64,000 nucleotides of DNA from the NCBI GenBank assembly GCA_964654445.1, contig CAZZIS010000004.1:2898-66897 (forward strand), given 5' to 3'. Each line of letters starts with the position of its first letter. Position 1 is the stretch's first letter. Below the pieces are notes generated by a model. It saw only the letters and a program-made list of their open reading frames with translations. It was not told the origin of the DNA and ran no database searches. Of this stretch, positions 4,595-19,566 are shown piece after piece. The stretch comes from an uncultured Thioalkalispiraceae bacterium. Its GTDB lineage: Bacteria > Pseudomonadota > Gammaproteobacteria > UBA6429 > Thiohalophilaceae. The translations under genes were made by a program, and so were the position numbers.

Positions 4595-4774
4595 AGCCTG
4601 TTCCAATTAACGTGTTTAAATATAAAGTATTTATCGTCACACTATGTTGTTACATAGCGTGGCTCAAGATGTGATGAAGTGACACAACTTATTTAGATTA
4701 AATCGGGAATAGAAGGGAAGTAGTTGTTAAGGCACACTTCACAATTAAAGATACACAAAGTGTTGATAGCATGA

Positions 4775-4790
4775 TGTCACCTGTGTGACA
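4775..4790. promoter_or_regulatory. candidate operator palindrome TGTCAC-N4-GTGACA in the ppsA / Crp-family divergent intergenic region
   Basis: Perfect 6-bp arms read directly from the sequence. A second 6-4-6 palindrome, CTATGT-N4-ACATAG, lies at 4642-4657. The 5-4-5 core spacing resembles FNR-type sites. No regulator can be assigned from sequence alone. Confidence 0.25.
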
Positions 4791-4996
4791 CTCAAGGTGT
4801 TTTTCAGTTAGTAGCTAGAATCAATCCAATTAATATGTAAAAAATATTACTAAATGCCTGAGATATCGTTAAATGTAAAAACTTTTTTCACTTTAGTCTG
4901 TCAATGTTTATTGTTGCCTTATTAGTAAGCTTAAAAAATACAACGCAATAACTGTCTTGCACGAGAATAAGGATAACTGAAAAGGAATAATCAGAC

Positions 4997-5746
4997 ATGA
5001 AAAGAGATCCGGTTTATTACAAGCATTGTAAAAAAGTACTTTGTCAGACGGCATTATTTGAAGGATTGGCGGATAATGTGCTTGATGATATGTTGTCTTT
5101 GTTTCGGCGTGATACTTGGAGACGGGGTATACAACTCGACTCTGCCATCTTTCATGAGCGTTTTTATTTGCTGATCGAAGGACGCCTTGAAGTCATGCGA
5201 GTAAATCCTAAAACCGGCAGAAGCATTACGCTGTCATTGCTGGGGCCGGGTGACGGTATTGATGTGGTAACATTATTAAATAATGACCCTCATGATGTTC
5301 AACCGGTGGCCATTGATGATGTGGCCTTGATTTCAGTACCGATAAAAGATGCCCGAGACTGGATTGACAAACATCCTGAATTTAATCGTAATTTTCTGCC
5401 TTATCTGGGCGAACAAATGCGTAAACTGGAAGACCTCAGCACTGATCTGGCCTTATATGACACAATGACTCGACTCGCTCGCTTGATATTACGCCATGTT
5501 GCACCGCACCATCCACAGTCCGGTAATGGAAATCATTCACTAAAACTGATTCATGATTTACATGATGAATCGCTGGCACGTATGGTGGGTTCGGTGCGTC
5601 AAGTCGTTAACCGACACCTACAGCATTGGCGCAAGCAGGGAATCTTGCATAAGCAAAATTTTCACACTGAAGTCAAAGAACTGGAAACACTTCAGGACTA
5701 CGCCACTGAAGCTCACTTACCACCAGAGCAAAAAGATAAAGCTTAA
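4997..5746 (+). CDS. Crp/Fnr-family transcriptional regulator
   Basis: 249 aa. N-terminal cNMP-binding beta-roll (FHERFYLLIEGRLEVMRVNPKTGRSITLSLLGPGD) and C-terminal HTH (ESLARMVGSVRQVVNRHLQHWRKQGIL). An AAAGGAA ribosome-binding site lies 10 nt upstream of the ATG. Confidence 0.85.
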   Translation: MKRDPVYYKHCKKVLCQTALFEGLADNVLDDMLSLFRRDTWRRGIQLDSAIFHERFYLLIEGRLEVMRVNPKTGRSITLSLLGPGDGIDVVTLLNNDPHDVQPVAIDDVALISVPIKDARDWIDKHPEFNRNFLPYLGEQMRKLEDLSTDLALYDTMTRLARLILRHVAPHHPQSGNGNHSLKLIHDLHDESLARMVGSVRQVVNRHLQHWRKQGILHKQNFHTEVKELETLQDYATEAHLPPEQKDKA

Positions 5747-6105
5747 ATTACCTCCTACGCGCCAGTACGGATATTACCTTTATTTTCGCTCATTCAAGAC
5801 ATCTGTCACCTGGATGACAGTATGAACACTGTGTATCAAATAAAATAAAAAATAATTCAAAGATAATTTGTATGTCCGATTCTGAGGTATCCCCACATAA
5901 TTTCGATCTAAATCAATGACTTACATAGAAAATACAAACAGTACCCTCGACACTTATATTTTCAGAATAAGTGGTATGCATAATATTACTTATATAATGC
6001 ACCAAATGCCTTTATGCATGACTAAACTGTTTTTAAATATATTAGGTAAATTAAAAAACTTCATAACTTATTTTATTCTGATCACTTTTTTGTGGGGATC
6101 CCTTA

Positions 6106-6651
6106 ATGTCCGACTACAATTTCATCGAGCCTGAAGATATGACTAAAAAAAATACATGTGTTTCACTTTATTCAAGCGAGCAGACTGCTGAACAGGCTAT
6201 TGAAGAATTACTAGCACAAAATTTTGATCTGAAAATTGTATCAATGGTTGGTAAGGGTTTTCATAACGAAGAACACCCCATTGGTTTATATACTAGCGGT
6301 GAGCAACTTCGTTTTCGTGGTGTTCAGGCTGCATTCTGGAATAGTCTCTGGGGTCAGCTGAGTGGTGCATCATTTTTTTTGCTACCAGATTTTGGTCCAT
6401 TAGCCGCCGCCGGCCCCATCGTTAGTTTGCTGGTGAAAGAGCAAGAAGATATAGAGATTGGTAGCAGATTGAGTGTATTAGGTGCGGCACTCTTCAGCAT
6501 GGGGATTCCAAGAGATAGCATACGCCAATATGAAAAAGCGCTTAAGGAAGAAAAATTTCTGCTGATTGTTCATGCTGTACGAAGTGATGTTGAGCACGCT
6601 TGTCATATTCTACATAGCGATACACAACAAGTAGCTGTGCACATGGCTTAA
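6106..6651 (+). CDS. hypothetical protein, possibly a YflT/GSP17M-like general stress domain with a hydrophobic central segment
   Basis: 181 aa with a GGGGA ribosome-binding site 7 nt upstream. The C-terminal GIPRDSIRQYEKALKEEKFLLIVH resembles the G-[IV]-P-x6-YE-x-L-x3-x-LL-V motif of general-stress-protein 17M-type domains. The assignment is tentative. Confidence 0.4.
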   Translation: MSDYNFIEPEDMTKKNTCVSLYSSEQTAEQAIEELLAQNFDLKIVSMVGKGFHNEEHPIGLYTSGEQLRFRGVQAAFWNSLWGQLSGASFFLLPDFGPLAAAGPIVSLLVKEQEDIEIGSRLSVLGAALFSMGIPRDSIRQYEKALKEEKFLLIVHAVRSDVEHACHILHSDTQQVAVHMA

Positions 6652-6884
6652 TGAGAGTGGACTCCATGAAGGTTTGGTTTATGTTGTTCATTTTCATTTA
6701 TATCATATGATGAATGTGTGTATGTTTAATATTGAACATGTGCGTGGCAAATAGAAGTGTATAGTTGAAACAAAAATGTCCGTCATTTCTGTTGTAGTCT
6801 TCTATTTAATCTGTAGTGGCATAGTTAATTTGGCCACCTAACTAGAGGTGATATCATTCATCTCGTAACATGATAGGTGGAAAA

Positions 6885-7196
6885 ATGAGTAAGAAAAGCA
6901 GACCAAACTTTAAACCCGAGTTTCGTTTAGAAGTTGCAGAACTTGTTGTTAAACAAGGCTACTCCGTACGAGAAGCCGCTGAAGCAATGAATGTCGGCAA
7001 ATCAACGGTTGATAAATGGGTACGGCAACTTAAAGATGAACATAATGGCATTGCGAACAAACCTAATGCATTAACACCAGACCAACGAAAAATAAAAGAA
7101 CTTGAAAAGCGAATTAAACAAATCGAATTGGAGAAAGAAATCCTAAAAAAGGCTACGGCTCTCTTGATGTCGGACTCGATGAACAATTTGCGATGA
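6885..7196 (+). CDS. IS3-family transposase OrfA (HTH / leucine-zipper protein)
   Basis: MSKKSRPNFKPEFRLEVAELVVKQGYSVREAAEAMNVGKSTVDKWVRQLK... is a typical IS3/IS911 OrfA. An AGGTGG ribosome-binding site precedes the ATG at 6885; the track start at 6870 is less likely. Confidence 0.9.
   Translation: MSKKSRPNFKPEFRLEVAELVVKQGYSVREAAEAMNVGKSTVDKWVRQLKDEHNGIANKPNALTPDQRKIKELEKRIKQIELEKEILKKATALLMSDSMNNLR
7145..7151 (+). promoter_or_regulatory. programmed -1 ribosomal frameshift heptamer A-AAA-AAG (orfA to orfB)
   Basis: In the orfA frame the codons are cuA AAA AAG, which is the canonical IS3-family slippery motif in the correct phase. orfB (7193) is in the -1 frame relative to orfA (6885). Confidence 0.7.
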
Positions 7197-7804
7197 TGTC
7201 ACAACTCAAAGAGAGCTATGCTGTAACAGAACTTTGCCAGGCATTTGATGTTCATCGCAGCAGTTATAAATATTGGGTTAAACGTTCTCAAACAATTAAC
7301 CCTATAAAATTAAATGAACAGTTGTTGGTAAAAACAATATTTAGCGAGAGCAAAAATTCTGCCGGAGCGCGAACGATATCAGAAATAGCAACACAACGTG
7401 GAACACCATTAAGTCGTTATCGTGCTGGACGTTTAATGAAAGCCTGCCAACTTCATAGTTGTCAGCAACCGAAACACCGATATAGAAAAGCGAAACAAGA
7501 ACACGTAGCGATACCTAATCACTTAAACCGTGAGTTTGATGTCATGGAACCCAATAAAGTATGGTGCGGTGATGTAACGTATATTTGGGTGGGAAAACGC
7601 TGGGCTTATCTTGCCATTGTGATGGATTTGTTTTCACGTAAACCGATTGGTTGGGCGATGTCATTTTCTCCCGACAGTCAGTTAACAAGCGATGCTTTAG
7701 CAATGGCTTTTGAGTCACGAGGAAAACCGAAAGAAGTTATGTTTCATTCTGATCAAGGCTGCCACTATACGAGCAGAAAGTTTAGACAACAGCTGGAGAT
7801 GTAG
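7193..7804 (+). pseudogene. IS3-family transposase OrfB (DDE/rve integrase core), truncated
   Basis: 203 aa, versus about 280-290 expected. The first Asp (WCGDVTY) and second Asp (FHSDQGCHYTS) of the DDE triad are present. The region that should hold the Glu about 35 aa downstream is replaced by unrelated AT-rich DNA. Confidence 0.85.
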
Positions 7805-7939
7805 AGTATAAAATACATTCCGGATATCCTGCTGATAAGTCTTTAACGACAATTGATGGAGAAAAAATTATGACTCATGAGATCATGATGAATTCATTAG
7901 AGGCTGGTAAAGAGGCATATAATAATAGGAGGGGAGTCT

Positions 7940-8230
7940 ATGAGACTGTTGAAAATTAAAGATAATCAGGGGCAGTACTATGTTGGTCCTAATAATTATT
8001 TGACGCTAGATAAATTAACTAAGGAAGGTTTATTAATGCTTGTGAATTTGACATTAGAAAACGAAATAGAAATGGATGAATATAATGAAGAAACACTTAA
8101 GCATCAGGCGCATCAAGTTATCTATAAAAATGTATTCCAAAAGCTAAATGAACTTGATAAAAGAAAGCAAGAATTTACTGATGATTCTGAAACTTTATTT
8201 TTAGAAGATTATGAAAAATATAAAGGATAA
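7940..8230 (+). CDS. hypothetical acidic 96-aa protein (orphan)
   Basis: A strong AGGAGGGG ribosome-binding site lies 4-5 nt upstream of the ATG. I recognise no motif. It sits in AT-rich DNA immediately after the IS truncation point. Confidence 0.45.
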   Translation: MRLLKIKDNQGQYYVGPNNYLTLDKLTKEGLLMLVNLTLENEIEMDEYNEETLKHQAHQVIYKNVFQKLNELDKRKQEFTDDSETLFLEDYEKYKG

Positions 8231-8475
8231 TGATAATAGATATACTTATAACTATAGTTGAGATTGATATTAAATATTTTACTGTTGGTTTGAGTGTGCA
8301 CTATAATTTGTTTCATTTAAACCCACTTTCTTAATCCTTTTCTTTACCAGTGTATTGATAGCGCTTCCGCTAATGCTTTTATATAGTGTTAATTCAGACT
8401 TAATTCCTCTAAACAAGTTCCCTTCATGTATTCCACTTTTTAGTAAACATTGCTTTTATGCTCTTGTTCAAGCAA

Positions 8476-8534
8476 TTTAGTACTTTTTGTGGAAATTTAG
8501 TACTTTCCGTGGATAAGTTTAGTACTTACTGTGG
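8476..8534 (+). repeat. iteron module A: three direct copies of TTTAGTACTTnnnGTGG (starts 8476, 8496, 8518)
   Basis: Read directly: tttagtactttttgtgg / tttagtactttccgtgg / tttagtacttactgtgg. Spacing is 20 then 22 bp, and the module is followed by gtggttgaccaaa. Confidence 0.85.
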
Positions 8535-8738
8535 TTGACCAAACTCAATTGCCTCTACAGCAATTATTACTAATGATAATTGGAACTAAATCAAATTGGA
8601 TTGGGCTAAAAACAAAGAACCGCAAAATTAAGAATTTACCTGAGTTGGTATAAGCTAAATAAGCTATAAGTTCTAAATCACAAAAAATTCATCCATAATA
8701 AACGTTACGAATACTATCAATAAATGCTGGTTAAGTGC

Positions 8739-8806
8739 TTTAGTACTTGCTATGGAAATTTAGTACTTTTCGTGGGAAAGTTTAGTACTTTCTGTGGTCG
8801 ACCACA
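8739..8806 (+). repeat. iteron module B: second copy of the triple iteron (starts 8739, 8759, 8781), ending in the 14-bp perfect palindrome TGTGGTCGACCACA (8793-8806)
   Basis: tttagtacttgctatgg / tttagtacttttcgtgg / tttagtactttctgtgg, with the same 20/22-bp spacing as module A. The whole roughly 65-bp module is a direct repeat of A, offset by 263 bp. Confidence 0.85.
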
Positions 8807-8923
8807 TCGTGCTGGAATAACGATTATAGTATATACTCGCTATTTAACATAATATATATTATGCCGCTTTTAAATGTAAGTCAGATATAACAGAGAATAA
8901 TGTCGTATGATGATTCCGGTTTT

Positions 8924-10096
8924 TCAAAGAAAAGAAAAATTAAATGGAAATGAAACTGTTAATTGAAAGTCAGGAGAATCAGAAGTCAAACCAATACTAA
9001 GGTCGACATCAACAGCAGAAGATTCACCTTTTGCTTTGGATAATCCTATCGCAAAGGTGGATGTTGTCATCTCTGTACCGCTAAGTTTTTGTCCATTAAT
9101 TTCTGTTTTATCAGTATAGAGAAATTGGAAGTTAAAACTTAGTGATGTATCAAAATTTAGCGCCAGTGCCATACCAAGGTTGAGACCACTACTAATACCT
9201 GGTTTAACATACCCTACTTGCTTCCCCATACCCTCTGTATAATTTACGGAAAAACTGCCAAAAAGAACAATTGGATCTGCACTCGTCATTGAGGTTAGAG
9301 ATAAGCTATAGGTATTAAAACCACTTCCCAAAGCGAGTTCATTAGAACTTAACAGTCGATAAGGATCTTTTCCTGTTGCCGTTTTCCAGTTAAGCGCTAT
9401 TACTGAATCCGGCCAATCGCTGTGTGATTTAATGAGTTGATAACTTAGACCAAGAGAAATATCGCCAAGTCCAGATATTTTTTTTTCTTCATGCTTTCCA
9501 TCACCTCTGAATGATTCTTCTTTCTCATAACCCAAGGGAATAACAACATCCATTTGCATATCCTGGCCAAGTCCTAGCCTAAAAGAATGGTTATTTGTGA
9601 TAATATCACGACTTACTTTTTCTGAGACAATGTCTCCGACAACCAGAACTGGAAAAATTGTAAAACCATCAACCACAATATTGTCATAAGAGGAATGAGC
9701 ATATGACAAACTTGGTTCATAAATAAACTGGTATTTACCCAGCAGCATCCCCCCTTCTTTACTCAACCTTTGTTCAAAAGCAGTTTTAATCAGTTTAGAG
9801 TTTTCCTCACTTTCCTTCTCCAGCTTGGCCTTAACTTCCGGATCCACCTGTGGGTTGGTATGATCATTCTCATCTTTGATGATAACGGCTTTGTCACTAA
9901 CTGAATCCTCAAGGTGTTCTATACGCTGTATAAGATTCTTAATAACTTTCTCATATACCATGTTGCTTTGTTTAAGCTGAAGGATTTTCTGGTTTATCTC
10001 ACCACTTTGTGAAGTTATGCTGGCATAGTCATCAGCCACGCCTATGTGACTAATTAACAGCAGAGCAATAACAATTATAAAACGACTAAATTTCAT
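8924..10096 (-). CDS. outer-membrane beta-barrel protein with N-terminal coiled coil (FapF-like architecture); putative secretion pore of the cluster
   Basis: 390 aa. Signal peptide MKFSRFIIVIALLLISHIGVA. A heptad-like helix at about aa 30-70 (GEINQKILQLKQSNMVYEKVIKNLIQRIEHLEDSV), then a charged linker. The remaining roughly 280 aa have an alternating hydrophobic/polar beta-strand pattern ending ...TVSFPFNFSFL. The start codon is 1 nt after the peptidase stop. Confidence 0.7.
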   Translation of the reverse strand: MKFSRFIIVIALLLISHIGVADDYASITSQSGEINQKILQLKQSNMVYEKVIKNLIQRIEHLEDSVSDKAVIIKDENDHTNPQVDPEVKAKLEKESEENSKLIKTAFEQRLSKEGGMLLGKYQFIYEPSLSYAHSSYDNIVVDGFTIFPVLVVGDIVSEKVSRDIITNNHSFRLGLGQDMQMDVVIPLGYEKEESFRGDGKHEEKKISGLGDISLGLSYQLIKSHSDWPDSVIALNWKTATGKDPYRLLSSNELALGSGFNTYSLSLTSMTSADPIVLFGSFSVNYTEGMGKQVGYVKPGISSGLNLGMALALNFDTSLSFNFQFLYTDKTEINGQKLSGTEMTTSTFAIGLSKAKGESSAVDVDLSIGLTSDSPDFQLTVSFPFNFSFL

Positions 10097-10097
10097 A

Positions 10098-10844
10098 TTA
10101 AGGAGAATGTACCACCATTCGTCTAGTTAAAGGCACAGTAGGGATACGACTAAGAAGACGATATGCATAATGAGGATTTGGAATCGCAGCCTCCATAGTC
10201 TGTGGCGAAAGAATGCTTTTAGATGGTTTTTTTTTCTGTTTAGCCAATAGCTGTTTTTCTTCTGTGGTTACAACATAGAAAGCTATTTTACTTTTCCACA
10301 TTCTCATAAACCGATCTGCAGGCAAAGAAAGATTCCCAAATGCTGGATCACCAACGAGGATATGATTTCCAACACGTTTTTTAAATATAACAAAGTGATC
10401 TAGCTCTTTAATTCGTATCGGGAGTATTGCAGGTATAGAAAACGTTTCCAGATCATCAATCGTCATATCACCATAACCGAGACCTTGTAGACCAACAGCC
10501 CTGACAAAACGCTTAAGATCATATAATGAAAATCCACCTCGCTTCTTAACAACAACTGGGTCACTATTTTTTAAGATACTTAAAGTTATAGCCATTTCAG
10601 AATATGGTCGACCATTATGATAGGTTAAAATTGTTGAAAGAGCGGCAGCACCGCAACTGATGTCCCACCCTTGTCTTGTTAATTTATCCCAACGAAGTTC
10701 ATATAAGCTCTTAACATTACTTTTATATCGCATATTTCCAAAGTTTATTCCAACCGGGCTGGCGTAAAGTTGAAAAGAAAATATATTGAAAAAAATAAAA
10801 AGTAATAATAAAATCATATAAAGACTTGAGTTTTTATATGTCAC
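10098..10844 (-). CDS. stand-alone peptidase C39-like (bacteriocin-processing-type papain-fold cysteine peptidase) with its own N-terminal signal/anchor
   Basis: 248 aa. Hydrophobic N-terminus (LYMILLLLFIFFNIFSFQLYASP). Gln58-x5-Cys64 sits in RQGWDISCGAAALSTIL, His150 in LDHFVIFKK and Asp166 in VGDPAFG. The His-to-Asp spacing is 16 residues. It is not fused to an ABC transporter. The start is GTG at 10844, with an alternative ATG at 10817. Confidence 0.85.
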   Translation of the reverse strand: MTYKNSSLYMILLLLFIFFNIFSFQLYASPVGINFGNMRYKSNVKSLYELRWDKLTRQGWDISCGAAALSTILTYHNGRPYSEMAITLSILKNSDPVVVKKRGGFSLYDLKRFVRAVGLQGLGYGDMTIDDLETFSIPAILPIRIKELDHFVIFKKRVGNHILVGDPAFGNLSLPADRFMRMWKSKIAFYVVTTEEKQLLAKQKKKPSKSILSPQTMEAAIPNPHYAYRLLSRIPTVPLTRRMVVHSP

Positions 10845-10854
10845 TATTCCTGTC

Positions 10855-11250
10855 TCACCTGGCTAAAAGAGTATTCAACTGATTTATATTGCCAATTGTA
10901 GAATTCACATTGATATTCAAGTTCAACAAAATCTGAATAGGAGAATTAACTGCATTGATGTTAATTAGTGAGCTTAAGTTTGATTGAGCATTATCCATCA
11001 AATGTAAACTTGATGTCTGGTTATAGAGTGACATAGGGACAACGATAACTTCTCCATCTACACTTCCCTTTCTTCCACTATAGCGAAAAGGAATACGGGT
11101 TAACGCTTCCATGCTTTCATGGTCTGAGTTAGTGTTACCTGCGGTGATTGCATTGAGTTGCTGGTCGCTTAACTCCTCAAAGCCCCTCACCCCGGCTGAA
11201 AAAAGAATTATTAGAAAAAAGGAAATAAGGACCGTGTATTTTGTATTCAT
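10855..11250 (-). CDS. small secreted paralog (X4) of the cluster cargo family: signal peptide, AG-type leader motif and a single C-terminal N-rich motif
   Basis: MNTKYTVLISFFLIILFSAGVRG / FEELSDQQLNAITAG|N ... LSSLININAVNSPIQILLNLNINVNSTIGNINQL. A GGTGG ribosome-binding site lies 5 nt upstream of the ATG at 11250; the track start at 11262 is less likely. Confidence 0.7.
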   Translation of the reverse strand: MNTKYTVLISFFLIILFSAGVRGFEELSDQQLNAITAGNTNSDHESMEALTRIPFRYSGRKGSVDGEVIVVPMSLYNQTSSLHLMDNAQSNLSSLININAVNSPIQILLNLNINVNSTIGNINQLNTLLAR

Positions 11251-11270
11251 AATAACCACCATAAAGCAGC

Positions 11271-12557
11271 CTAACGCTGCTGGATAAAACGATTATGTTG
11301 CTGCATTGACAACCGAGACACAGTAGATGTTCCTGTAATGACTGGCAGTCTGCTTAAGTTAAATGCATTAGCCGCAACTGATGCAACAGCATTTACCCCA
11401 TTGAAGACCCGCATGTTTTTTTGCGCGCTCTCGCTTAGTAATACAGTGCTACTGTTATTTACCGAAAGGCTTCCATCGCTTAGTGCGAGCAACTCTGCCT
11501 CTGCACCTGTCATCTGGCCACCTGTAAAAATAGAGTGTTCATACGATTCTATAAATGAATTCTCAGCGACGTCTACCGCTTTGTATTCTTCTACAAGCTT
11601 GTCATCCTGAACGACTGGTTCAATCTGTGTATCACCCGAACTTTCGGGTCTAATAAAAGTGGAATCCATAACCCTTAATTTCTTATCTACATCAAATCGA
11701 GCGATGGTTACATCCCAACACCAAATAAAAAAACATAATTCGACATTTGCTTCTGCATCGAGCCTGAAGCGTGCATCGTTGGCAACAATTAATCCACTGC
11801 CCTTAATATCAACGCCAGCACCGTAGTTAAGCTCATCAACCTGAAAATCTAATAAATTTAACCACCCTAATTGATTTTTAGTAATAATTTCCGGTGGTTT
11901 TTCCTTCAGCTGTTCTAGTGAAGTATAACGTTTGCCTACTGTCACAGAATTGACACGCGTATTGCTGCTCACGTATTCGTTGATACGTGCCTGGTCGACA
12001 TAAGAATAGGCAACGTAGTTGTAGTTATTAGAACCGGAGCTGCGTAACTCGCTCTTTTCATAACGATGGTTTGCAATGGATGTGGTCAGGTTACCTTTTG
12101 TACGGTGACGCTGGCTAAGGTCATTGATTTGGTTAATCTCAATTTCAGATGTTACATCATCTACAGTGATGGAGTCGCCGTTAAAGATATTGTTAGTTGA
12201 TACTATGTCACTTGACAGTACATTTTCAAGATTAAGTGCAATTGCATTCTGTTGTGTTGTTCCATAAAGCAGAAGTTTTCTTTTGCGCTCTACATCAATT
12301 TTACTTTGTAAAATAACAAAAAGTTCAGGGTTCAATTCCATACCGTCGATGCTTTGTGGTTGTCGAAGTTTGGTATAACCGGAGTTCTTTTCTGGCTGTT
12401 GCTGCTCTTGAGGCAGGCTCTGGCCTTGAAGCTGTGGGTCGATTCCTCCTCCGCTAACACCGGCAAGTTCAGTATCAGAGAGTGTGGTTGCGGCAAATGA
12501 ACTCCCTGAAAATAAAAGTCCAAAGGTAACAAATAATGTAATGATAAAATATTTCAT
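11271..12557 (-). CDS. secreted cargo-family protein X3 (divergent paralog) with a perfect double-glycine leader motif after the signal peptide
   Basis: 428 aa. Signal peptide MKYFIITLFVTFGLLFSGSSFA, then ATTLSDTELAGVSGG|G. The N-terminal block is NAIALNLENVLSSDIVSTNNIFNGD. The C-terminal block LLSESAQKNMRVFNGVNAVASVAANAFNLSR is alignable with X1 and X2. Confidence 0.75.
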   Translation of the reverse strand: MKYFIITLFVTFGLLFSGSSFAATTLSDTELAGVSGGGIDPQLQGQSLPQEQQQPEKNSGYTKLRQPQSIDGMELNPELFVILQSKIDVERKRKLLLYGTTQQNAIALNLENVLSSDIVSTNNIFNGDSITVDDVTSEIEINQINDLSQRHRTKGNLTTSIANHRYEKSELRSSGSNNYNYVAYSYVDQARINEYVSSNTRVNSVTVGKRYTSLEQLKEKPPEIITKNQLGWLNLLDFQVDELNYGAGVDIKGSGLIVANDARFRLDAEANVELCFFIWCWDVTIARFDVDKKLRVMDSTFIRPESSGDTQIEPVVQDDKLVEEYKAVDVAENSFIESYEHSIFTGGQMTGAEAELLALSDGSLSVNNSSTVLLSESAQKNMRVFNGVNAVASVAANAFNLSRLPVITGTSTVSRLSMQQHNRFIQQR

Positions 12558-12615
12558 AATCCTTTACGCTTATAAATATATAATACCGAGTTGTGTGAAC
12601 CCCTGTTATAAAGTG

Positions 12616-13809
12616 TTAGTTGCCGTGATGCACTGTATTAAACTGGTTGAGTACTAATTTCGATCTGCTACCTTCAAAGCTTTTGGTACGAGTAATATTT
12701 GTGCCATTTGCCACGTTACTACCGATGGCATTAACGATATTCATTCCTTTTGCATCTTTTTGTGCTGAGTCTGAGAGTTCAAGCGTTACATCGGAGTTAA
12801 GGTCAAGAGTTGAGTCATCGATAACAATATATTCAGCTCTTGCATTTTTGAGTTCAAAGGGAGAACGGTAGATATTTGTTTGTACTTCTGAGTATGAGCT
12901 TTGTCCAGACTGATGATTTTCTATTATATCTAAAGTAGAGTTGTCTGTTTTAGTATTGGTTGTTTCGAAAAATACGCTATTTGCATTACACGAACCTATA
13001 GCTACTCCGCAACCAACGCCATTTATGATCAATCGCATATCTGGCAACTTCACCTGGGTAACTAGTACAAGACCCCCATCTGCTGTAAGGGGTTTACCAT
13101 CGCCGGCAGAGCTTATTTTTCCATCAAGTGCCACGGCAATATCAGCTGAGCCGCCTTCAAAGGTAATATCTGAGTAACCAGCTACAGCGGCACCCAGCCC
13201 GAGATGTCCTGAAAAGTCTATCTTATCGCCAAGTTTAAAGTTGAAATGTGTATTAACCCCGGCGTTGCTAAATGTAGTAGATTCATGAGTCTTTTCTAAG
13301 ATGTTTGTGACGCCATGATAGTCGATGATATTACTTGCGTAACTTACATTGCCGGAACGGTTCAGAGTCTCTGTATGGTCAGCTTCTGATCTTAGATAGC
13401 CAAAGATCATTGCAGTTCGAAGTTGTTCTTGAGTGATATTGTTTAACTGGTTAATCTTAACTTCGGAATTTGTATCACTGTTTTCTTTTGTTGCAGTAAC
13501 TCCGCTACCATCCCAAATATTAACAACATTGGCCACCGCGGACGCGGCACTATTTACAATGTTAAGCCCGGTTGTGTTTTGCTGAGCCTCTCCGTTTAGG
13601 TTGAGCTCTGATATACTGTTAGCGATAGCCTCTGAACTTTGTCCAACAACGACGCCGCCACCTTCGTTAGTATTACCGGCCGTTACCTGATCCATAACTC
13701 TATCTTCAAGTACAATAGGTGTGGAATATACAGCTTGGACCTGAAGCAATAAGCTACTCAAAAGTAGTATTGGTATACTTAATAATAATTTTTGATTCTT
13801 ATCTGACAT
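12616..13809 (-). CDS. secreted cargo-family protein X2 (paralog of X1)
   Basis: 397 aa. Signal peptide, then VLEDRVMDQVTAG|N. Shares with X1 the blocks GLNIVNSAASAVANVVNIWD, INQ..QEQ, GVGCGVAIGSC, YRSPFELKNARAEYIVIDDSTL and LELSDSAQKDAKGMNIVNAIGSNVANGTNITRT. Confidence 0.75.
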   Translation of the reverse strand: MSDKNQKLLLSIPILLLSSLLLQVQAVYSTPIVLEDRVMDQVTAGNTNEGGGVVVGQSSEAIANSISELNLNGEAQQNTTGLNIVNSAASAVANVVNIWDGSGVTATKENSDTNSEVKINQLNNITQEQLRTAMIFGYLRSEADHTETLNRSGNVSYASNIIDYHGVTNILEKTHESTTFSNAGVNTHFNFKLGDKIDFSGHLGLGAAVAGYSDITFEGGSADIAVALDGKISSAGDGKPLTADGGLVLVTQVKLPDMRLIINGVGCGVAIGSCNANSVFFETTNTKTDNSTLDIIENHQSGQSSYSEVQTNIYRSPFELKNARAEYIVIDDSTLDLNSDVTLELSDSAQKDAKGMNIVNAIGSNVANGTNITRTKSFEGSRSKLVLNQFNTVHHGN

Positions 13810-13894
13810 AACTGCTTTGCATCCCTATATATAGAGCCGATTAATAATTTAATCGGAAACTATTATAATGCTGCTAACGGTCGACTCTGCCAGT

Positions 13895-13921
13895 TTGCCT
13901 TGACCGTTACAGTCAAGGCAA
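13895..13921 (-). promoter_or_regulatory. intercistronic stem-loop after the first cargo gene (10-bp perfect stem TTGCCTTGAC / GTCAAGGCAA, 7-nt loop)
   Basis: Read directly from the sequence. A second 8-bp stem, CCGATTAA-TAAT-TTAATCGG, lies at 13837-13856. There is no clear U-tract, so it is more likely an attenuator or mRNA-stability element than a full terminator. Confidence 0.4.
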
Positions 13922-13937
13922 AAAGCAGATTACAGAT

Positions 13938-15188
13938 TTAACGGCTGTGACTAATTACATTGGACTGTTGCAGAGCCATTGCACCACCATTAGCTAGTCC
14001 ACTGGTGCGGGCAACGTTAACCCCGTTAGCCACTGCGCTTCCAGAAGCGTTGACTACATTCATAGCACTAACATTGCTTTGCGCACTACCTGAAAGTGTC
14101 AGATTGAATGAGGTAGTAACAGCAAGACTTGAGTCATCTACTACAATGTACTCGGCCTGTGCATTACTTAGTTCAAAGGGCGAGCGATATGTCTCAGTCA
14201 AATTGTCAGTAAACTCACTATCACCGATGCTGCTGACTTTCTCATTATCCATAATGGAATTGTCAGTGGTATTAGAAGTGGTCACAGTTGTTTTACCACC
14301 GGCACCACATGATCCCATTAAAACTCCACAACCTGCACCAGTTATATCGATCGTGATATCAGGTAGTATCAACCGACCGTATAGTGAGACATCATCACCG
14401 TTTACATCCATGCCACCGTAACTATCTTTGGTTTCAGTACCACCGCTTAGAATTGTAACTTCATCCTTATGAGCTATAACATTCCCACCAACAGCTAAAC
14501 CAAGATGTACTTCACCACCGTCGAGATCGAGACCTAATGTTCCAGCACCTGCGCCACCTTTACCAACGTTGGTATCAACACTTCCTCTGGGATCTGCTGT
14601 ACCACCAGAATTGAGATCTCCTTTAATAGTAGTATCAACCCAAGCTGTGCTCTCTGAAGTCTCCGAACCTGTAAGAGCCTGATAATCAATAATATTATTG
14701 TTACGATCCAGACTATCATTGTGAGTTTCGGAGCCAGTTCGTATCACTTCTATAAAAGTATCAGCCTCGGGTCGAGAATAGTTAGGCATGGATGCAGAGC
14801 GTCTCTGTTCCTGATTGATCATATTTGATTGATCGACCATCATCTCTCCACTATCTGCGTTTGCATCGTTTGCATTGACATCCCAGATGTTGACACCATT
14901 AGCAACGGTCGACTCGGCGCTATTGACAATGTTGAGCCCTTTAGCTCCACTTTGCACTTCACCGCTTAAATCAACACCGCCAGTTTGATTAATAGTTGCT
15001 TGAGAGCTGTTTCCGATAATGGCACCACCACTCCCTCCGGGACTCGTGTTTGCATCAGTACCAGCAGTGACTTGATTTAATGTCAAATCATCAAGCGTTA
15101 CAGGTTCTGAATAAGCATTAGGTAAATATAAGAGACAGAGTAATGGCAATCCAGCCGCCAGTCGAAAAGGTATGTTTTTGGTATACAT
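13938..15188 (-). CDS. secreted cargo-family protein X1 (first gene of the operon; candidate major subunit)
   Basis: 416 aa. A strong AAGGAGGG ribosome-binding site lies upstream. Signal peptide MYTKNIPFRLAAGLPLLCLLYLPNAYS, then EPVTLDDLTLNQVTAG|T. The N-terminal block is GLNIVNSAESTVANGVNIWD (14880-14963). There is a Cys pair in GAGCGVLMGSC. The C-terminal block is LTLSGSAQSNVSAMNVVNASGSAVANGVNVART (14013-14090). Composition is G/N/S/T/A-rich. Confidence 0.75.
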   Translation of the reverse strand: MYTKNIPFRLAAGLPLLCLLYLPNAYSEPVTLDDLTLNQVTAGTDANTSPGGSGGAIIGNSSQATINQTGGVDLSGEVQSGAKGLNIVNSAESTVANGVNIWDVNANDANADSGEMMVDQSNMINQEQRRSASMPNYSRPEADTFIEVIRTGSETHNDSLDRNNNIIDYQALTGSETSESTAWVDTTIKGDLNSGGTADPRGSVDTNVGKGGAGAGTLGLDLDGGEVHLGLAVGGNVIAHKDEVTILSGGTETKDSYGGMDVNGDDVSLYGRLILPDITIDITGAGCGVLMGSCGAGGKTTVTTSNTTDNSIMDNEKVSSIGDSEFTDNLTETYRSPFELSNAQAEYIVVDDSSLAVTTSFNLTLSGSAQSNVSAMNVVNASGSAVANGVNVARTSGLANGGAMALQQSNVISHSR

Positions 15189-15960
15189 GATGACTTCCCT
15201 CCTTGTGCATTAAGATTATTCTTTGTTCACTAATAAATAACCTACTCCTGTTAGTTGAAATTTACGTTGATCTGGATCATTTTCAATAATAATAGGAAGA
15301 ATAAATAAATTCAGATTTCTCTTATTTAATTCACTTATTTAATGTGTTACTAGTATTTCAAGCTTCTTTTATGTTTCATTAACAATTTATAATTCAACTT
15401 GAGATTTTTAATATGTATATTTTTTCTTTTCATGTTTTAAATTTATCTGATATTTAAAATATTAAATATTATTCTGTGACTATAAACAATAAAAACTACT
15501 ACTAAAGAAAACTCAATAATTTACTGCTAATAGTTGATACATAAAATGCCTAATAACAATACAGCCTGGATACCGTTAGTTGCTGCAATTATATTTAAGT
15601 TAATAATGGTTTAATATTGCGTTACTCATATTTATTAATATGTAATAAACGATTGGTACAACAAAACTCCAATTCACAAATCATACTAATGATAAATAAC
15701 TTATTCTAAATGTGTATTTAATGTATTGATAACTTTAATAAAAAAGATATTTATTATTAAAGTCATATACATAAGTAACCGATACTATTTGATAAATACT
15801 CTATAATGATAATAAGACATACCGCACACGTGCATTAATTTAAGGACAAAAACATGCGTGAGAAACAATATAATCTAGCCGTAATGATAAGGAACTATTC
15901 AATTATTCGAGTATCTAACCTTTACTCTTGCCTCAATTTAGTAATTCACAAGGATTAGTC
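15189..15960. promoter_or_regulatory. extremely AT-rich divergent control region of about 770 bp between the cargo operon (-) and fadE (+)
   Basis: No ORF of 60 aa or more in any frame. Long A/T runs are present (for example tttaaatttatctgatatttaaaatattaaatattatt). It must contain the promoters of both divergent operons, but I could not pinpoint -35/-10 boxes confidently. Confidence 0.4.
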
Positions 15961-18222
15961 ATGAATAATAAAAAAGATCACTGGCGCTTAAAATGGCTTA
16001 GCGCGCCATTAATGAAGCTATTCCGAAAAGTGACACCGACAATGTCACGCACTGAACAAGAAGCGCTGGAAGCGGGATCAGTCTGGTGGGATGGTGAACT
16101 TTTTAGTGGAAAGCCTCAATGGAATAAACTTCTCTCATTACCTGCTCCGTCTCTTAGTAAAGAAGAACAGGCCTTCATGGATGGCCCGGTAAATACTTTA
16201 TGTAATATGTTGGATGACTGGCAAATTACACAAGAAGATAAAGATCTACCTGAAGATGTTTGGCAGTATATTAAAGATAATGGCTTTTTTAGCATGATTA
16301 TACCCAAGCACTATGGCGGTAAAGATTTCTCTGCTTATGCACATTCACAAGTGGTTATGAAAATTTCAACCCGTAGTATATCGACTGCGGTTACAGTAAT
16401 GGTACCCAACTCACTGGGGCCCGGTAAATTATTACTGGAATATGGTACTGAAGAACAAAAAGATCATTACCTGCCTCGTTTAGCTAAAGGTGAAGAAGTC
16501 CCCTGCTTTGCTTTAACCAATCCACATGCTGGTAGTGATGCCGGCGCTATTCCTGATTTTGGTATTGTTTGCAAAGAAAAGTTTGATGGAAAAAAAGATG
16601 TGTTGGGTATTCGCTTAAATTGGGACAAACGTTATATAACACTTGGCCCTGTTGCAACATTGCTTGGGCTTGCTTTTAAACTTTATGATCCGGATCATCT
16701 TCTGGGTGAAGAAGAAGAGATTGGTATCACTCTGGCACTTATTCCGACAGATACTAAAGGTGTTGAAATTGGTAATCGTCACTTCCCATTAAATATGGTT
16801 TTCATGAATGGTCCAAATTATGGTAAAGATGTTTTTATCCCTATGGACTGGGTGATTGGTGGAATTAAGCAGACGGGCCAGGGCTGGCGTATGTTGATGG
16901 AATGTCTATCAGATGGACGTGCAATATCATTACCCGCCTTGAGTACCGGCGCAGGTAAGCTGGCAAGTTTATCTGTGGGTGCTTATTCCCGCGTACGTCA
17001 GCAATTCAAAATGCCGATTGGAAAATTTGAAGGCGTTGAAGAGGCCCTGGCACGTATTGGTGGTTTAACCTATATTATGGATGCATCACGTTCGTTAACA
17101 TTGGCTGCATTAGATAATGGTGAAAGTCCGTCGGTTATCTCTGCCGTAGTAAAATATCATTTAACGGAGAGTATGCGTAAAGTCGTTAATGATGCCATGG
17201 ATGTTTTAGGTGGAGCAGGAATTTGTCTTGGTCCTAAAAATATTATGGGTCGGGCTTATCAGGCTATTCCAATCAGCATTACTGTTGAAGGAGCAAATAT
17301 TCTCACTCGCTCGATGATTATTTTTGGCCAGGGTGCCATTCGTAGTCATCCTTTTATCTATAAGGAGCTGGAATCTTTATCAGAACATGACGAAAATAAA
17401 GCCCTGGAACAATTTGATCGAGCCTTGTTTGGTCATGCAAGTTTCTTTATAACAAATACAATTCGTTGTTTTTTTAATGGCGTGACGAATGCCTTGTTTA
17501 TTCGAGCTCCTTCTCGAGCTAACAGGAAAGTTAAACGCTATTATAAACAAGCAACAAGGATGAGCGCTTCATTTGCCCTGGTTACTGATATTTCTTTAAT
17601 GATCCTGGGTGGTTCACTAAAACGACGTGAAAAAATATCGGCCCGTTTAGGTGATATTCTCAGTCATCTTTATATGCTTTCTGCAGTGTTAAAACATTAC
17701 CAGGATCAGGGTGAACATGAGTCAGACTTACCGTTTGTTCATTGGGCTTGTCAGTATAATTTACAACGTATTCAAACTGCCTTTAATGGGTTTTTACATA
17801 ATTTTCCAAACCGGCCTATTGCATTGTTATTACGCTGGATTATTTTCCCCTGGGGACGTCTTTATGCACCACCCAATGACAAGTTAGGTCATGAGATTTC
17901 TAAATTATTGATTAACCCTTCCGAAATGCGTAACCGTTTAACTGCAGGTGTGTTTATTCCTGAAAATGAAAATGAAGCGATAACACAACTTGAAATCGCT
18001 TTCCTTAAAGTTGTTGATGCTGCACATTTAGAAAAAAAGATTCGTTCATTTCAAAAAGCATTTAAACCTGAATATGCAGGGTATGAAGTGATGCTAAAAG
18101 CCGCATTAGAAGAAGGTATCATTGATAAGGATGAAGAATCCATTCTGCAACAGGCTAACGAAGCCCGTACAAAAGTAATTGGTGTTGATGATTTTACTTT
18201 TGACTTATCGAGAAAAAAATAA
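15961..18222 (+). CDS. fadE: acyl-CoA dehydrogenase, FadE type
   Basis: MNNKKDHWRLKWLSAPLMKLFRKVTPTMSRTEQEALEAGSVWWDGELFSGKPQW aligns with the E. coli FadE region ...[29 protein letters not shown]. An ACAD core follows. The track start at 15928 is TTG; I prefer the ATG at 15961, which has an AAGGA ribosome-binding site. Confidence 0.9.
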   Translation: MNNKKDHWRLKWLSAPLMKLFRKVTPTMSRTEQEALEAGSVWWDGELFSGKPQWNKLLSLPAPSLSKEEQAFMDGPVNTLCNMLDDWQITQEDKDLPEDVWQYIKDNGFFSMIIPKHYGGKDFSAYAHSQVVMKISTRSISTAVTVMVPNSLGPGKLLLEYGTEEQKDHYLPRLAKGEEVPCFALTNPHAGSDAGAIPDFGIVCKEKFDGKKDVLGIRLNWDKRYITLGPVATLLGLAFKLYDPDHLLGEEEEIGITLALIPTDTKGVEIGNRHFPLNMVFMNGPNYGKDVFIPMDWVIGGIKQTGQGWRMLMECLSDGRAISLPALSTGAGKLASLSVGAYSRVRQQFKMPIGKFEGVEEALARIGGLTYIMDASRSLTLAALDNGESPSVISAVVKYHLTESMRKVVNDAMDVLGGAGICLGPKNIMGRAYQAIPISITVEGANILTRSMIIFGQGAIRSHPFIYKELESLSEHDENKALEQFDRALFGHASFFITNTIRCFFNGVTNALFIRAPSRANRKVKRYYKQATRMSASFALVTDISLMILGGSLKRREKISARLGDILSHLYMLSAVLKHYQDQGEHESDLPFVHWACQYNLQRIQTAFNGFLHNFPNRPIALLLRWIIFPWGRLYAPPNDKLGHEISKLLINPSEMRNRLTAGVFIPENENEAITQLEIAFLKVVDAAHLEKKIRSFQKAFKPEYAGYEVMLKAALEEGIIDKDEESILQQANEARTKVIGVDDFTFDLSRKK

Positions 18223-18255
18223 ATATCCGGAAAGATAAATATAAGAGAAAAAATA

Positions 18256-19566
18256 ATGGATAGTCCAGAACAAAGAAAAAGTTTACCGAAACCGATATAT
18301 ATTGTTGATGGCAGTCGAACGCCATTTTTAAAAGCAAAAGGAAAACCTGGTGAATTTGCCGCGGTTGATCTTGCTTTAGGTTGTTCTCGCCCTTTACTGG
18401 CACGACAGCCTTTTTCAGCAGATCAACTTGATGAAGTGATTGTTGGTTGTATGATGCCAGGTCCCGATGAAGCAAATATTGCACGAATAATAGCATTACG
18501 ACTGGGATGTGGTAAAAAAGTTCCGGCCTGGACGGTACAACGCAATTGCGCATCGGGCATGCAAGCTCTGGATTCAGCCGCGAAAGATATCTCTTTAGGA
18601 CGGGCAAACCTTGTTCTTACTGGCGGTGTTGAAGCCATGAGTCATGCACCGGTCTTATTAAATAATGAGATGGTTGGTTGGTTAGGTCGCTTGGCGATGT
18701 CTAAAAAGCCAATGGACAAATTAAAAACGTTTGCAGCATTACGCCCTCGTCACCTTAAACCCATTATCGGTTTACTACGAGGTTTAACTGATCCGGTTGT
18801 CGGCTTGTCTATGGGACAAACTGCAGAAAATATCGCGCATCGTTTTAATATTGATCGTCTGACTATGGATACTTTTGCAGTACAAAGTCATCAACGGCTG
18901 GCAGCGGCACAAGAAGCCGGATTTTTTGATGAAATTGAAGCCTTGTATGATCTAAAAGGACATTCATTTTTAAATGATGATGGTGTTCGAACGGACTCTT
19001 CAGTAGAACGTTTAGCAAAACTTCGTCCTGTCTTTGATCGACATTTTGGTAATGTTACCGCAGGTAACAGTGCACAAATTACTGATGGTGCGGCAATGCT
19101 TTTGCTTGCAAGTGAAGAAGCGGTTAAAGAATTCAAGCTTCCTGTTATGGGTAAACTGATTGATAGTCACTGGGCAGGACTTGAGCCTGCACAAATGGGG
19201 CTTGGTCCTGTTCATTCAATTACACCCATTTTATCACGTAATGAGTTATCAATTGCTGATATTGATTACTGGGAAATAAACGAAGCCTTTGCTGCTCAAG
19301 TATTAGGTTGCCTGGCTGCCTGGCAAGATGAAGCATATTGTAAAGAGGAACTTGGTCTGGAAGCCGCCCTGGGAAAAGTTGATCAGAGTAAACTCAACAT
19401 AGATGGTGGTGGCGTAAGTTTAGGTCATCCTGTAGGTGCAAGTGGAGCACGAATTGTTCTGCATCTTTTAAATGTACTCAAGCGTAAGAAAGCGAAACGT
19501 GGTATCGCCAGCCTTTGTATCGGTGGTGGTCAGGGTGGCGCTATGTTGATAGAGCGTGGTAAATAA
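18256..19566 (+). CDS. fadI: acetyl-CoA C-acyltransferase (3-ketoacyl-CoA thiolase), FadI-like
   Basis: 436 aa. Active-site Cys in VQRNCASGMQAL and C-terminal SLCIGGGQGGAMLIERG. The thiolase-before-hydratase gene order matches fadIJ. Confidence 0.85.
   Translation: MDSPEQRKSLPKPIYIVDGSRTPFLKAKGKPGEFAAVDLALGCSRPLLARQPFSADQLDEVIVGCMMPGPDEANIARIIALRLGCGKKVPAWTVQRNCASGMQALDSAAKDISLGRANLVLTGGVEAMSHAPVLLNNEMVGWLGRLAMSKKPMDKLKTFAALRPRHLKPIIGLLRGLTDPVVGLSMGQTAENIAHRFNIDRLTMDTFAVQSHQRLAAAQEAGFFDEIEALYDLKGHSFLNDDGVRTDSSVERLAKLRPVFDRHFGNVTAGNSAQITDGAAMLLLASEEAVKEFKLPVMGKLIDSHWAGLEPAQMGLGPVHSITPILSRNELSIADIDYWEINEAFAAQVLGCLAAWQDEAYCKEELGLEAALGKVDQSKLNIDGGGVSLGHPVGASGARIVLHLLNVLKRKKAKRGIASLCIGGGQGGAMLIERGK

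Follow-up and report, generated by a model that had tools for sequence, protein, structure and literature searches.

A predicted Fap/Fil-type secretion operon whose cargo proteins, of an uncharacterised family, carry double-glycine-type leaders behind their Sec signals

The six-gene operon

We analysed a stretch of 64,000 nucleotides (nt) of contig CAZZIS010000004.1, from an uncultured Thioalkalispiraceae bacterium. In this stretch, which we call the window, six co-directional genes occupy positions 8924-15188, all on the minus strand. In order of transcription they encode four secreted proteins (X1 to X4, the cargo), a cysteine peptidase of the C39 family, and an outer-membrane barrel of the type of FapF, the barrel of the Pseudomonas Fap functional-amyloid system. 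The main result is that each of the cargo proteins carries, directly behind its Sec signal peptide, a leader of the double-glycine (GG) type that C39 peptidases cut in other systems. The six genes, as given by the listing of open reading frames (ORFs), are:

13938..15188, minus strand: X1, the first cargo gene, 416 amino acids (aa), with an AAGGAGG ribosome-binding site
12616..13809, minus strand: X2, a paralogue of X1, 397 aa, 39% identity to X1
11271..12557, minus strand: X3, a divergent cargo protein, 428 aa, E 5e-7 to X1
10855..11262, minus strand: X4, a small cargo or accessory protein, 135 aa, or 131 aa from 11250
10098..10844, minus strand: C39 cysteine peptidase of the FapD/FilB class (PF03412), 248 aa, GTG start after AGGA
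8924..10096, minus strand: FapF-type outer-membrane barrel, 390 aa, by NCBIfam FapF, PDB 5O65 and Foldseek

The spacers are 128 nt between X1 and X2, 58 nt between X2 and X3, 8 or 20 nt between X3 and X4, 10 nt between X4 and the peptidase, and 1 nt between the peptidase and the barrel. Orientation, coordinates, lengths and spacers all agree with a first-pass annotation made from the DNA letters without database searches. For X4, the ATG at 11250 (MNTKY...) has a GGTGG Shine-Dalgarno-like site and agrees with the starts of the orthologues; it is more likely the true start, giving 131 aa. In each of the six products, a single hydrophobic h-region lies at the N-terminus, and nothing after it resembles a transmembrane segment except for a beta-strand stretch in the barrel. 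No gene for an ATP-binding cassette (ABC) transporter or a membrane-fusion protein (HlyD) is found within 6000-19000 or beside the related operons described below, so that an absence already reported for this locus extends to its relatives.

The peptidase and the barrel

The peptidase matches PF03412 with an E-value of 3.4e-13, and it aligns with the PCAT/ComA peptidase domains in PDB. Its top curated families in NCBIfam are FilB (5e-30, 104.8 bits, for a cut-off of 475) and FapD (5e-28, 97.9 bits, for a cut-off of 330). The catalytic set Gln58/Cys64/His150/Asp166, which the first-pass annotation had singled out as intact together with the protein's own hydrophobic N-terminus, is invariant in 23/23 orthologues. 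The peptidase stands alone, with a signal peptide and no other transmembrane segment, and is predicted to be an active soluble periplasmic C39 of the FapD/FilB class. It also has a C-terminal extension of about 55 residues past the C39 domain (about 190-248; window 10098-10280), in which a few Pro and Arg positions are conserved across orthologues. No such extension exists in ABC-fused C39 domains; here it may serve to dock the barrel or the cargo.

The barrel matches the NCBIfam models FapF (2e-36, 125.7 bits, cut-off 700), over positions 6-420 of the 420 in the model, and FilC (9e-27, 94.4 bits, cut-off 630). Amongst PDB sequences its best match is FapF (5O65, E 1e-22). An AlphaFold2 (AF2) model made with 57 homologues is confident, with a predicted local distance difference test score (pLDDT) of 81.5. 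Residues 31-67 form a helix in it, which a disordered linker (68-83) joins to a second helix (86-113) in the position of the FapF plug; the barrel proper takes up 123-388. The first helix agrees with coiled-coil heptads at 31-66, with S31, I38, N45, I52, I59 and V66 in position a and I34, L41, Y48, L55 and L62 in position d, just where a coiled coil had been noted after the signal peptide. When the model is compared to PDB structures with Foldseek, 18 FapF chains come first, with E-values of 2.5e-23 to 1.5e-19 and template modelling (TM) scores of 0.77-0.85 normalised to FapF. The earlier proposal of a Fap-type barrel is thus borne out twice, by PDB sequence and by predicted fold.

A double-glycine-type leader on every cargo protein

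In X1 to X4, a leader with consensus L(-12)-x-D-x-x-L(-7)-D-x-V/I(-4)-T-A(-2)-G(-1) starts two to five residues past the predicted signal-peptidase site, which gives a predicted propeptide of 15-17 residues. The leaders, as located by a motif scan, are:

15060..15095, minus strand: X1 leader LDDLTLNQVTAG, predicted C39 recognition and cut site (after AG)
13675-13710, minus strand: X2 leader LEDRVMDQVTAG
12447-12482, minus strand: X3 leader LSDTELAGVSGG, canonical GG
11137-11172, minus strand: X4 leader LSDQQLNAITAG

Class II bacteriocin leaders, which C39 peptidases cut, have this spacing: positions -12, -7 and -4 are hydrophobic, and a small-Gly pair stands at -2/-1. The X3 leader fits the textbook form L-S-x-x-E-L-x-x-V-x-G-G, and the X4 leader has a weak match to a lantibiotic-leader Pfam model. 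In the six-frame ORFs of the window, the motif is observed 4 times for an expectation of 0.018, and it is found in the cargo genes alone. It is near-universal in 120 homologues of the cargo. Over 72 aligned sequences, A42 and G43 are invariant, and L32, D34, L37 and T41 are conserved at 90% or more. The logos are alike in all four cargo classes, the X3 class often ending in GG. A low-confidence AF2 model of X1 places a helix (34-41) on the motif.

This leader on every cargo protein is the most informative feature of the operon, and it is absent from the first-pass annotation. Because of the motif, its conservation and the intact catalytic residues of the peptidase, we infer that the leader is probably removed by the periplasmic C39, which would cut after the A/G-G pair.

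The cargo family

The four cargo proteins had been described as paralogues sharing sequence blocks, which is clearly so for X1 and X2 (39% identity, E 1e-71); beyond these two, the relationship is graded. X3 is distant, with a match to X1 in its C-terminal part (E 5e-7), and X4 has in common with the others a module of about 50 aa alone (E 0.002 by BLASTP, 3e-5 with a hidden Markov model, HMM, of the module). X1 consists of a Sec signal, the leader at 32-43, an N-module at about 57-106, a middle region of about 240 aa with an invariant Cys287/Cys294 pair (GxGCGVxxGSC), and a C-module at about 348-397. In X2, the Sec signal and leader are followed by N- and C-modules, and the cysteine pair is Cys267/Cys274. 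X3 has a Sec signal, its GG leader, a Q/P-rich linker, two modules and a Cys275/Cys280 pair. X4 has a Sec signal, the leader and a single module; its core, conserved over 20 orthologues, reads DNAQSNLxSLININAVNSPxQVLLNLNINxNS. N, S, T and G abound in the mature cargo, for which an almost entirely beta structure is predicted.

The N-module (57-106) and C-module (348-397) of X1 are homologous to each other (hhalign 98.6%, E 9e-16). X1, X2 and X3 have two modules each, those of X2 matching the module HMMs at 4e-25 and 1e-39 and those of X3 at 8e-8 and 2e-15, and X4 has one. Against the ORFs of Fil- and Fap-type loci, the N- and C-module HMMs find nothing better than E 0.09. In fap-type loci, small N/Q-rich proteins are encoded upstream of the peptidase; a relationship of X4 to them has no support (hhalign probability 9.5%), and we rejected it.

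With E-values up to 1 admitted, X1 to X4 have no match among Pfam and NCBIfam models, and a profile of the cargo family searched against PDB sequences returns antibody heavy chains alone, with E at least 0.03. There are 234 homologues of X1 in a set of 5.8 billion proteins, nearly all of them metagenomic, unnamed or 'hypothetical', and none with a Pfam domain. An exhaustive profile search of 1.84 billion representatives finds 294 clusters at 50% identity. The family is rare. In a scan of species-representative genomes, the closest match has 70% identity, and carriers occur amongst Gammaproteobacteria, Desulfuromusa, Desulfobacteraceae, other 'Deltaproteobacteria' and a Candidatus Acidiferrales metagenome-assembled genome (MAG). 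Marinobacter iranensis 71-i and Ectothiorhodospira haloalkaliphila ATCC 51935 are cultured carriers. The habitats are those of marine, sediment and soda-lake Proteobacteria.

The pairing of a C39 gene with a barrel gene, which had been suggested as something to look for in other genomes, is part of a larger conserved unit. We counted 22 related loci with enough flanking sequence, drawn from Gammaproteobacteria, Deltaproteobacteria and an Acidobacteria-like MAG. All 22 have the full set of X1-like, (X2), X3-like, X4 (about 130-150 aa), C39 and barrel genes, and 20 have it in the order found in the window. The X3 class in these loci is usually 520-625 aa long. X4 lies directly upstream of the peptidase gene in 21/22 complete loci; one locus (L031) has an additional X1-like gene between X4 and the peptidase. 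In a 'Deltaproteobacteria' MAG (L026, 5338-10893), the X4-C39-barrel block is divergent from an X1-like gene and a long X-like gene, so the block need not share a transcript with the cargo genes.

Some relatives of the cargo are tandem fusions, each with a single leader. P0084 (657 aa) and P0261 (714 aa) consist of two whole units, and P0258 (1401 aa) of four, with each C-module 10-46 residues before the next N-module. The two-unit fusion P0084 occurs in the same type of operon as that of the window. P0260 (1159 aa; L040 2313-5792, on a contig of GCA_030157125.1) has one leader followed by fifteen tandem modules. By Rosetta-stone reasoning, the whole-unit fusions suggest that the modules contact each other head to tail, and hence that the two-module subunits may polymerise, with the single-module X4 as nucleator, cap or anchor.

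Two side observations concern these multi-unit proteins. The gene for P0260 is downstream of a protein with a weak PilZ match and a GerE-type response regulator, neighbours that hint at control by cyclic di-GMP or of biofilm formation. P0259 and P0266 look like N-terminally cut forms of similar multi-unit proteins.

Comparison with known systems and other periplasmic C39 loci

The site of action of Pseudomonas FapD is the periplasm; secretion depends on its catalytic Cys, and its target is not known (Rouse et al. 2017, PMC5557850). The Fap proteins have no canonical leaders, apart from GG/GA motifs in FapE (PMC5557850). The operon in the window is like Fap in having Sec-exported parts, a soluble periplasmic C39 with an intact catalytic set and a homologous barrel with coiled coil, linker and second helix. 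In both, the operon starts with structural subunits and the peptidase and barrel genes are adjacent at the 3' end, and FapE-like proteins too have a GG-type motif near the N-terminus. The window operon differs in having no homologue of FapA, FapB, FapC or FapE. Its cargo is built from two terminal modules and a disulphide-containing middle of about 240 aa, where Fap has three imperfect amyloid repeats. It has a leader directly behind the signal on every cargo protein, whereas the Fap motif is found in FapE alone and not in the major subunits. The linker between coiled coil and second helix has about 16 residues in the window barrel and about 40 in FapF.

The first-pass annotation took Fap as its one comparator. 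The barrel is indeed closest to FapF, but on the peptidase side the filABCDEF cluster of Acinetobacter baumannii, annotated as a 'putative pilus', is as close, FilB being the best curated peptidase match and FilC also matching the barrel. The FilA gene is directly upstream of that of FilB, and the signal peptide of FilA is immediately followed by the leader-like MDDAALSAATGQ, which falls in the DUF6160 region of the protein. The C-terminal strands of FilA and of the window cargo are similar (ITISGH against NVISHSR). In other respects Fil is different. FilA (DUF6160, Gly-rich, 289 aa) has no detectable homology to X1-X4. Fil has one upstream cargo gene, and downstream a FadL-type FilD, FilE and a lipoprotein FilF, none of which is present at the window operon. 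The N-terminal region of FilC is Ser/Thr-rich where the window barrel has its coiled coil. We found no mechanistic study of the Fil cluster in the literature.

PCAT1, ComA, LahT and the colicin V type have the same (predicted helical) leader architecture, peptidase family and catalytic residues. Their peptidase is cytoplasmic and ABC-fused, their leader is the very N-terminus, and their cargo is a small peptide. In the window, by contrast, the leader lies behind a Sec signal, the peptidase is free and predicted to be periplasmic, the cargo proteins have 130-430 aa, and export would be through a barrel with no ABC or membrane-fusion partner. Curli (CsgA/B and CsgG, type VIII) resembles the proposed system in the Sec export of unfolded N/Q/G/S-rich subunits, in a dedicated outer-membrane channel, in extracellular assembly, and in having major and minor subunits in one locus. 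The window has no homologues of CsgG, CsgE or CsgF and no sequence similarity to curli, which uses a nonameric CsgG instead of a FapF-type barrel and has no peptidase step.

We collected other periplasmic C39 loci by tblastn of the peptidase against records annotated as 'plasmid', which include mislabelled chromosomes and chromids. In the Fil locus of A. baumannii (L032 5679-6548), FilA reads ...ANAMA/MQSMDDAALSAATGQ... after the signal peptide. In Fap-type loci of Cupriavidus, Aeromonas, Photobacterium and Croceicoccus, a FapE-like protein is encoded just after the peptidase (L034 7600-8109; L036 7606-8322; L033 about 7900-8741; L035 7587-8234). Those of Photobacterium, Croceicoccus and Cupriavidus have GG-type motifs that read LTDDEMSSLRGG followed by F, LSEEVLARQRGG followed by I, or ...RLEESRGG followed by F, ending in RGG, and the Aeromonas stretch ends in RGR. 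In Photobacterium, the part of the protein with the motif aligns to the N-terminal end of the FapE model of NCBI. The FilA and FapE-like motifs are candidate cleavage sites for FilB and FapD.

A further locus, on plasmid p12SAAs474 of Acinetobacter sp. SAAs474 (L037; features at 3483-3809, 5376-5843, 6260-6673, 4421-5293 and 6956-7579), encodes three small proteins with a Sec-type signal, about 35 residues on a GG leader LELSRQEMKDTQGA, and a Gly-rich or basic tail. Alongside them are a signal-bearing stand-alone C39 and a 290-aa outer-membrane-barrel-like protein ending in NYNFHF. It looks like another, bacteriocin-like, system that combines Sec, a GG leader and a periplasmic C39.

In the literature on periplasmic C39 peptidases, FilB/FilC and GG leaders, we found no description of the cargo family or of a Sec signal plus GG leader. 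To judge by the literature that we searched, this family is new, and so are its plan with two terminal modules and the presence of a leader on all the cargo proteins.

Proposed pathway and alternatives

The top curated-family matches to FapD/FilB and FapF/FilC, together with a cargo that has no family match, agree with the earlier suggestion of a Fap-type pathway exporting a different cargo, and we consider it very probable that the operon belongs to the Fap/Fil class of secretion. All six products, each with a signal peptide, would cross the inner membrane by Sec. After the signal-peptidase cut, the soluble periplasmic C39 would recognise the propeptide and cut after the A/G-G pair. The unfolded cargo would then exit through the FapF-type, probably trimeric, barrel, by a mechanism borrowed from FapF in which the periplasmic coiled coil and second helix may control the pore and recruit cargo. 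Once outside, the subunits would polymerise by head-to-tail stacking of their N- and C-modules of about 50 aa. The hairpin described in the next section would lead to an excess of X1, the proposed major subunit; X2 and X3 would be minor subunits, and X4 a nucleator, cap or anchor.

This package as a whole, from Sec export and leader removal to barrel export and module-stacking polymerisation, is the reading that we favour, with moderate confidence. Its last part, that the product is a stacking polymer, is for us an even call. With the tandem-fusion relatives in support, we infer that the product is a fibre at the surface or a polymer of the matrix, perhaps of cross-beta or beta-solenoid type; the composition, the stackable modules and the tandem-module relatives hint indirectly at a functional amyloid. 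The cargo architecture suggests a new way of building a surface polymer; if the proposal is true, neighbouring subunits stack in the way in which the repeats of curli and FapC stack within one molecule.

Several observations weigh against this reading. The scores to FapD, FapF, FilB and FilC are far below the equivalog cut-offs, so these proteins are relatives and not orthologues. The cargo matches none of the FapA/B/C/E, Fil and curli models, which agrees with the earlier view of it as uncharacterised, and the models do work on their own families: FapC and FapE pick up the Aeromonas locus, and a true Fil locus is recognised at 332.8 bits for FilA and 726 bits for FilD. Most leaders end in A-G instead of G-G, with TAAG in some clades, and in four loci a second, X3-like cargo gene has a degenerate leader with no small-Gly end. 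For FapD itself, cleavage is still supposed: in a review of December 2025 it 'is thought to' process FapE and FapF (PMC12822426). Each subunit has two modules alone, unlike classical repeat amyloids. The AF2 model of X1 (72 homologues) is of low confidence, with pLDDT 59.6 and a predicted TM score (pTM) of 0.28, and its Foldseek comparison to PDB gives noise alone (best E 0.1, TM below 0.1), so that we assign neither a fold nor a mode of stacking. The co-transcription of the six genes is deduced from spacing and synteny alone.

An alternative that keeps the same machinery takes the leader as an uncut targeting or anti-folding signal, with the C39 passing cargo to the barrel and cutting some other target, for example the barrel linker, as proposed for FapF. 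The non-canonical A-G and TAAG ends fit such a role. In some type 1 secretion systems, C39-like domains serve as chaperones and do not cleave, and a proposed target of FapD is FapF itself. Set against this, none of the catalytic residues varies in 23 orthologues, the window barrel linker at 68-83 has no GG or GA pair, and conservation in the leader peaks at the small-Gly pair, with A42/G43 invariant, as expected for a scissile site; we regard an uncut leader as unlikely. We find it similarly improbable that the cargo forms a non-filamentous surface layer, or consists of outer-membrane-associated or pore-forming beta-proteins such as adhesins or a sheet-like coat. The low-confidence X1 model does have very long beta-hairpins, with strands of up to 35 residues, and amongst its weak, non-significant fold matches are aerolysin- and lysenin-type pore formers and phage tail proteins. 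A large non-repetitive middle with a disulphide is also unlike classical amyloid subunits. However, those fold matches are noise (E at least 0.1, TM below 0.1), the whole-unit head-to-tail fusions and the 15-module protein point to linear stacking, and the related machinery exports fibre subunits.

The remaining two alternatives are far less probable. X1-X4 could be large secreted antibacterial toxins matured by the C39 in the manner of bacteriocins, for GG-type leaders with a C39 are hallmarks of class II bacteriocins and microcins, and at the unrelated Acinetobacter plasmid locus small Gly-rich peptides with GG leaders accompany a periplasmic C39. There is, however, no immunity gene, ABC exporter or membrane-fusion protein here or at the related loci; the cargo looks structural, being four all-beta paralogues of 130-430 aa with a biased composition, stackable modules and relatives fused in tandem, and the closest relatives of the machinery export matrix fibres. 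We give the toxin explanation very little weight. Finally, the barrel could be an uptake channel of the MetA/COG4313 type in a chance neighbourhood; a MetA-type channel is an outcome that the first-pass annotation had named as counting against its proposal. The barrel reaches 26.9 bits against PF13557 (Phenol_MetA_deg), for a gathering cut-off of 22, and several of its database homologues are named 'transporter'. But authentic FapF scores near-identically, at 21.1 bits, so the match is generic: it reflects a common barrel superfamily, not a specific membership. In the fold search, the COG4313/MetA-type channel (4rl8) comes at 1e-13, ten orders of magnitude behind FapF at 2.5e-23, and FapF is far closer by sequence as well. 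The N-terminal coiled coil and second helix are features of FapF, and the complete gene set recurs in 22/22 loci across phyla. The uptake channel is effectively refuted, and none of the outcomes that the first-pass annotation listed as refuting its proposal was observed.

The favoured reading, leader removal by the C39 followed by export through the barrel, has a bolder extension: that a Sec signal plus GG-type propeptide is the general code of FapD/FilB peptidases and, combined with a dedicated outer-membrane barrel, marks a widespread unrecognised class of two-step secretion, and that the X proteins form a module-stacking fibre. We put this forward tentatively; it is possible, and on balance we doubt it. 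If it is true, the operon provides what work on FapD has lacked from its first description, a clean substrate. The 'hybrid' secretion of Fap is known essentially from one model, and the substrate of the essential FapD is still guessed at. An operon from a sister branch makes it testable what a periplasmic C39 recognises, where it cuts, and whether cleavage is coupled to export through a FapF-type barrel. The leader motif and the C39-barrel gene pair also provide a simple annotation signature for such systems.

Hairpin and upstream region

Two further features bear on expression:

13886..13929, minus strand: RNA hairpin after X1, minimum free energy of -46.3 kcal/mol for the spacer, z = -4.7
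15189..15927, minus strand: upstream region of 739 bp and 28% GC, between X1 and a divergent fadE-like gene

The hairpin starts 9 nt after the X1 stop. It is stable and GC-rich, with an inner stem of 13 bp and an outer stem of 6 bp, and it is a candidate attenuator or stabiliser of the mRNA. Comparable hairpins, different in sequence, follow the first cargo gene in 14/15 related loci that have a spacer of at least 35 nt. A hairpin after the gene of the major subunit is a pattern of fimbrial operons. The pattern suggests that X1 is made in excess, and X1 is probably the major cargo subunit. The upstream region presumably holds the promoter and regulatory sites. Scans of promoter and terminator consensus sequences give the same counts as in shuffled sequences, and since sigma-70-like matches in the upstream region are no commoner than in shuffles, we assign no promoter.

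Flanking DNA

Downstream of the barrel gene, a spacer of 29% GC contains two arrays of three direct repeats of about 21 bp (TTTAGTACTTTCTGTGGrAA), at 8465-8541 and 8728-8804. The arrays are 77-nt blocks, 83% alike and 263 bp apart, and they look like iterons or multiple protein-binding sites. Before them is a 96-aa ORF (7940-8230) with no Pfam match. Farther on lies an insertion sequence (IS) remnant of the IS3 family (6870-7804), with an intact orfA (108 aa, HTH_Tnp_1) and an orfB truncated to 203 aa, its rve domain breaking off at profile position 87 of 102. The one Rfam match in the window, isrC (6881-7003), is inside this orfA and is thus probably IS sequence and not an independent small RNA. 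Between the IS3 remnant and a Crp-family regulator (4997-5746) there is a 181-aa ORF (6106-6651) with no Pfam match and a hydrophobic central stretch.

The first-pass annotation saw the placement of the operon, in an AT-rich patch beside the IS3 remnant and the repeat arrays, as consistent with horizontal acquisition. The remnant and the arrays do exist, but the AT-rich patch does not extend over the operon: its GC is 0.35-0.44, for about 0.39 in the window, and the two flanking spacers alone are AT-rich (0.29 and 0.28). We therefore reject the argument from composition as stated, and the argument from mobile elements is weak because they lie beside an operon of ordinary composition. The patchy distribution of the cargo family across phyla is a better, indirect sign of mobility.

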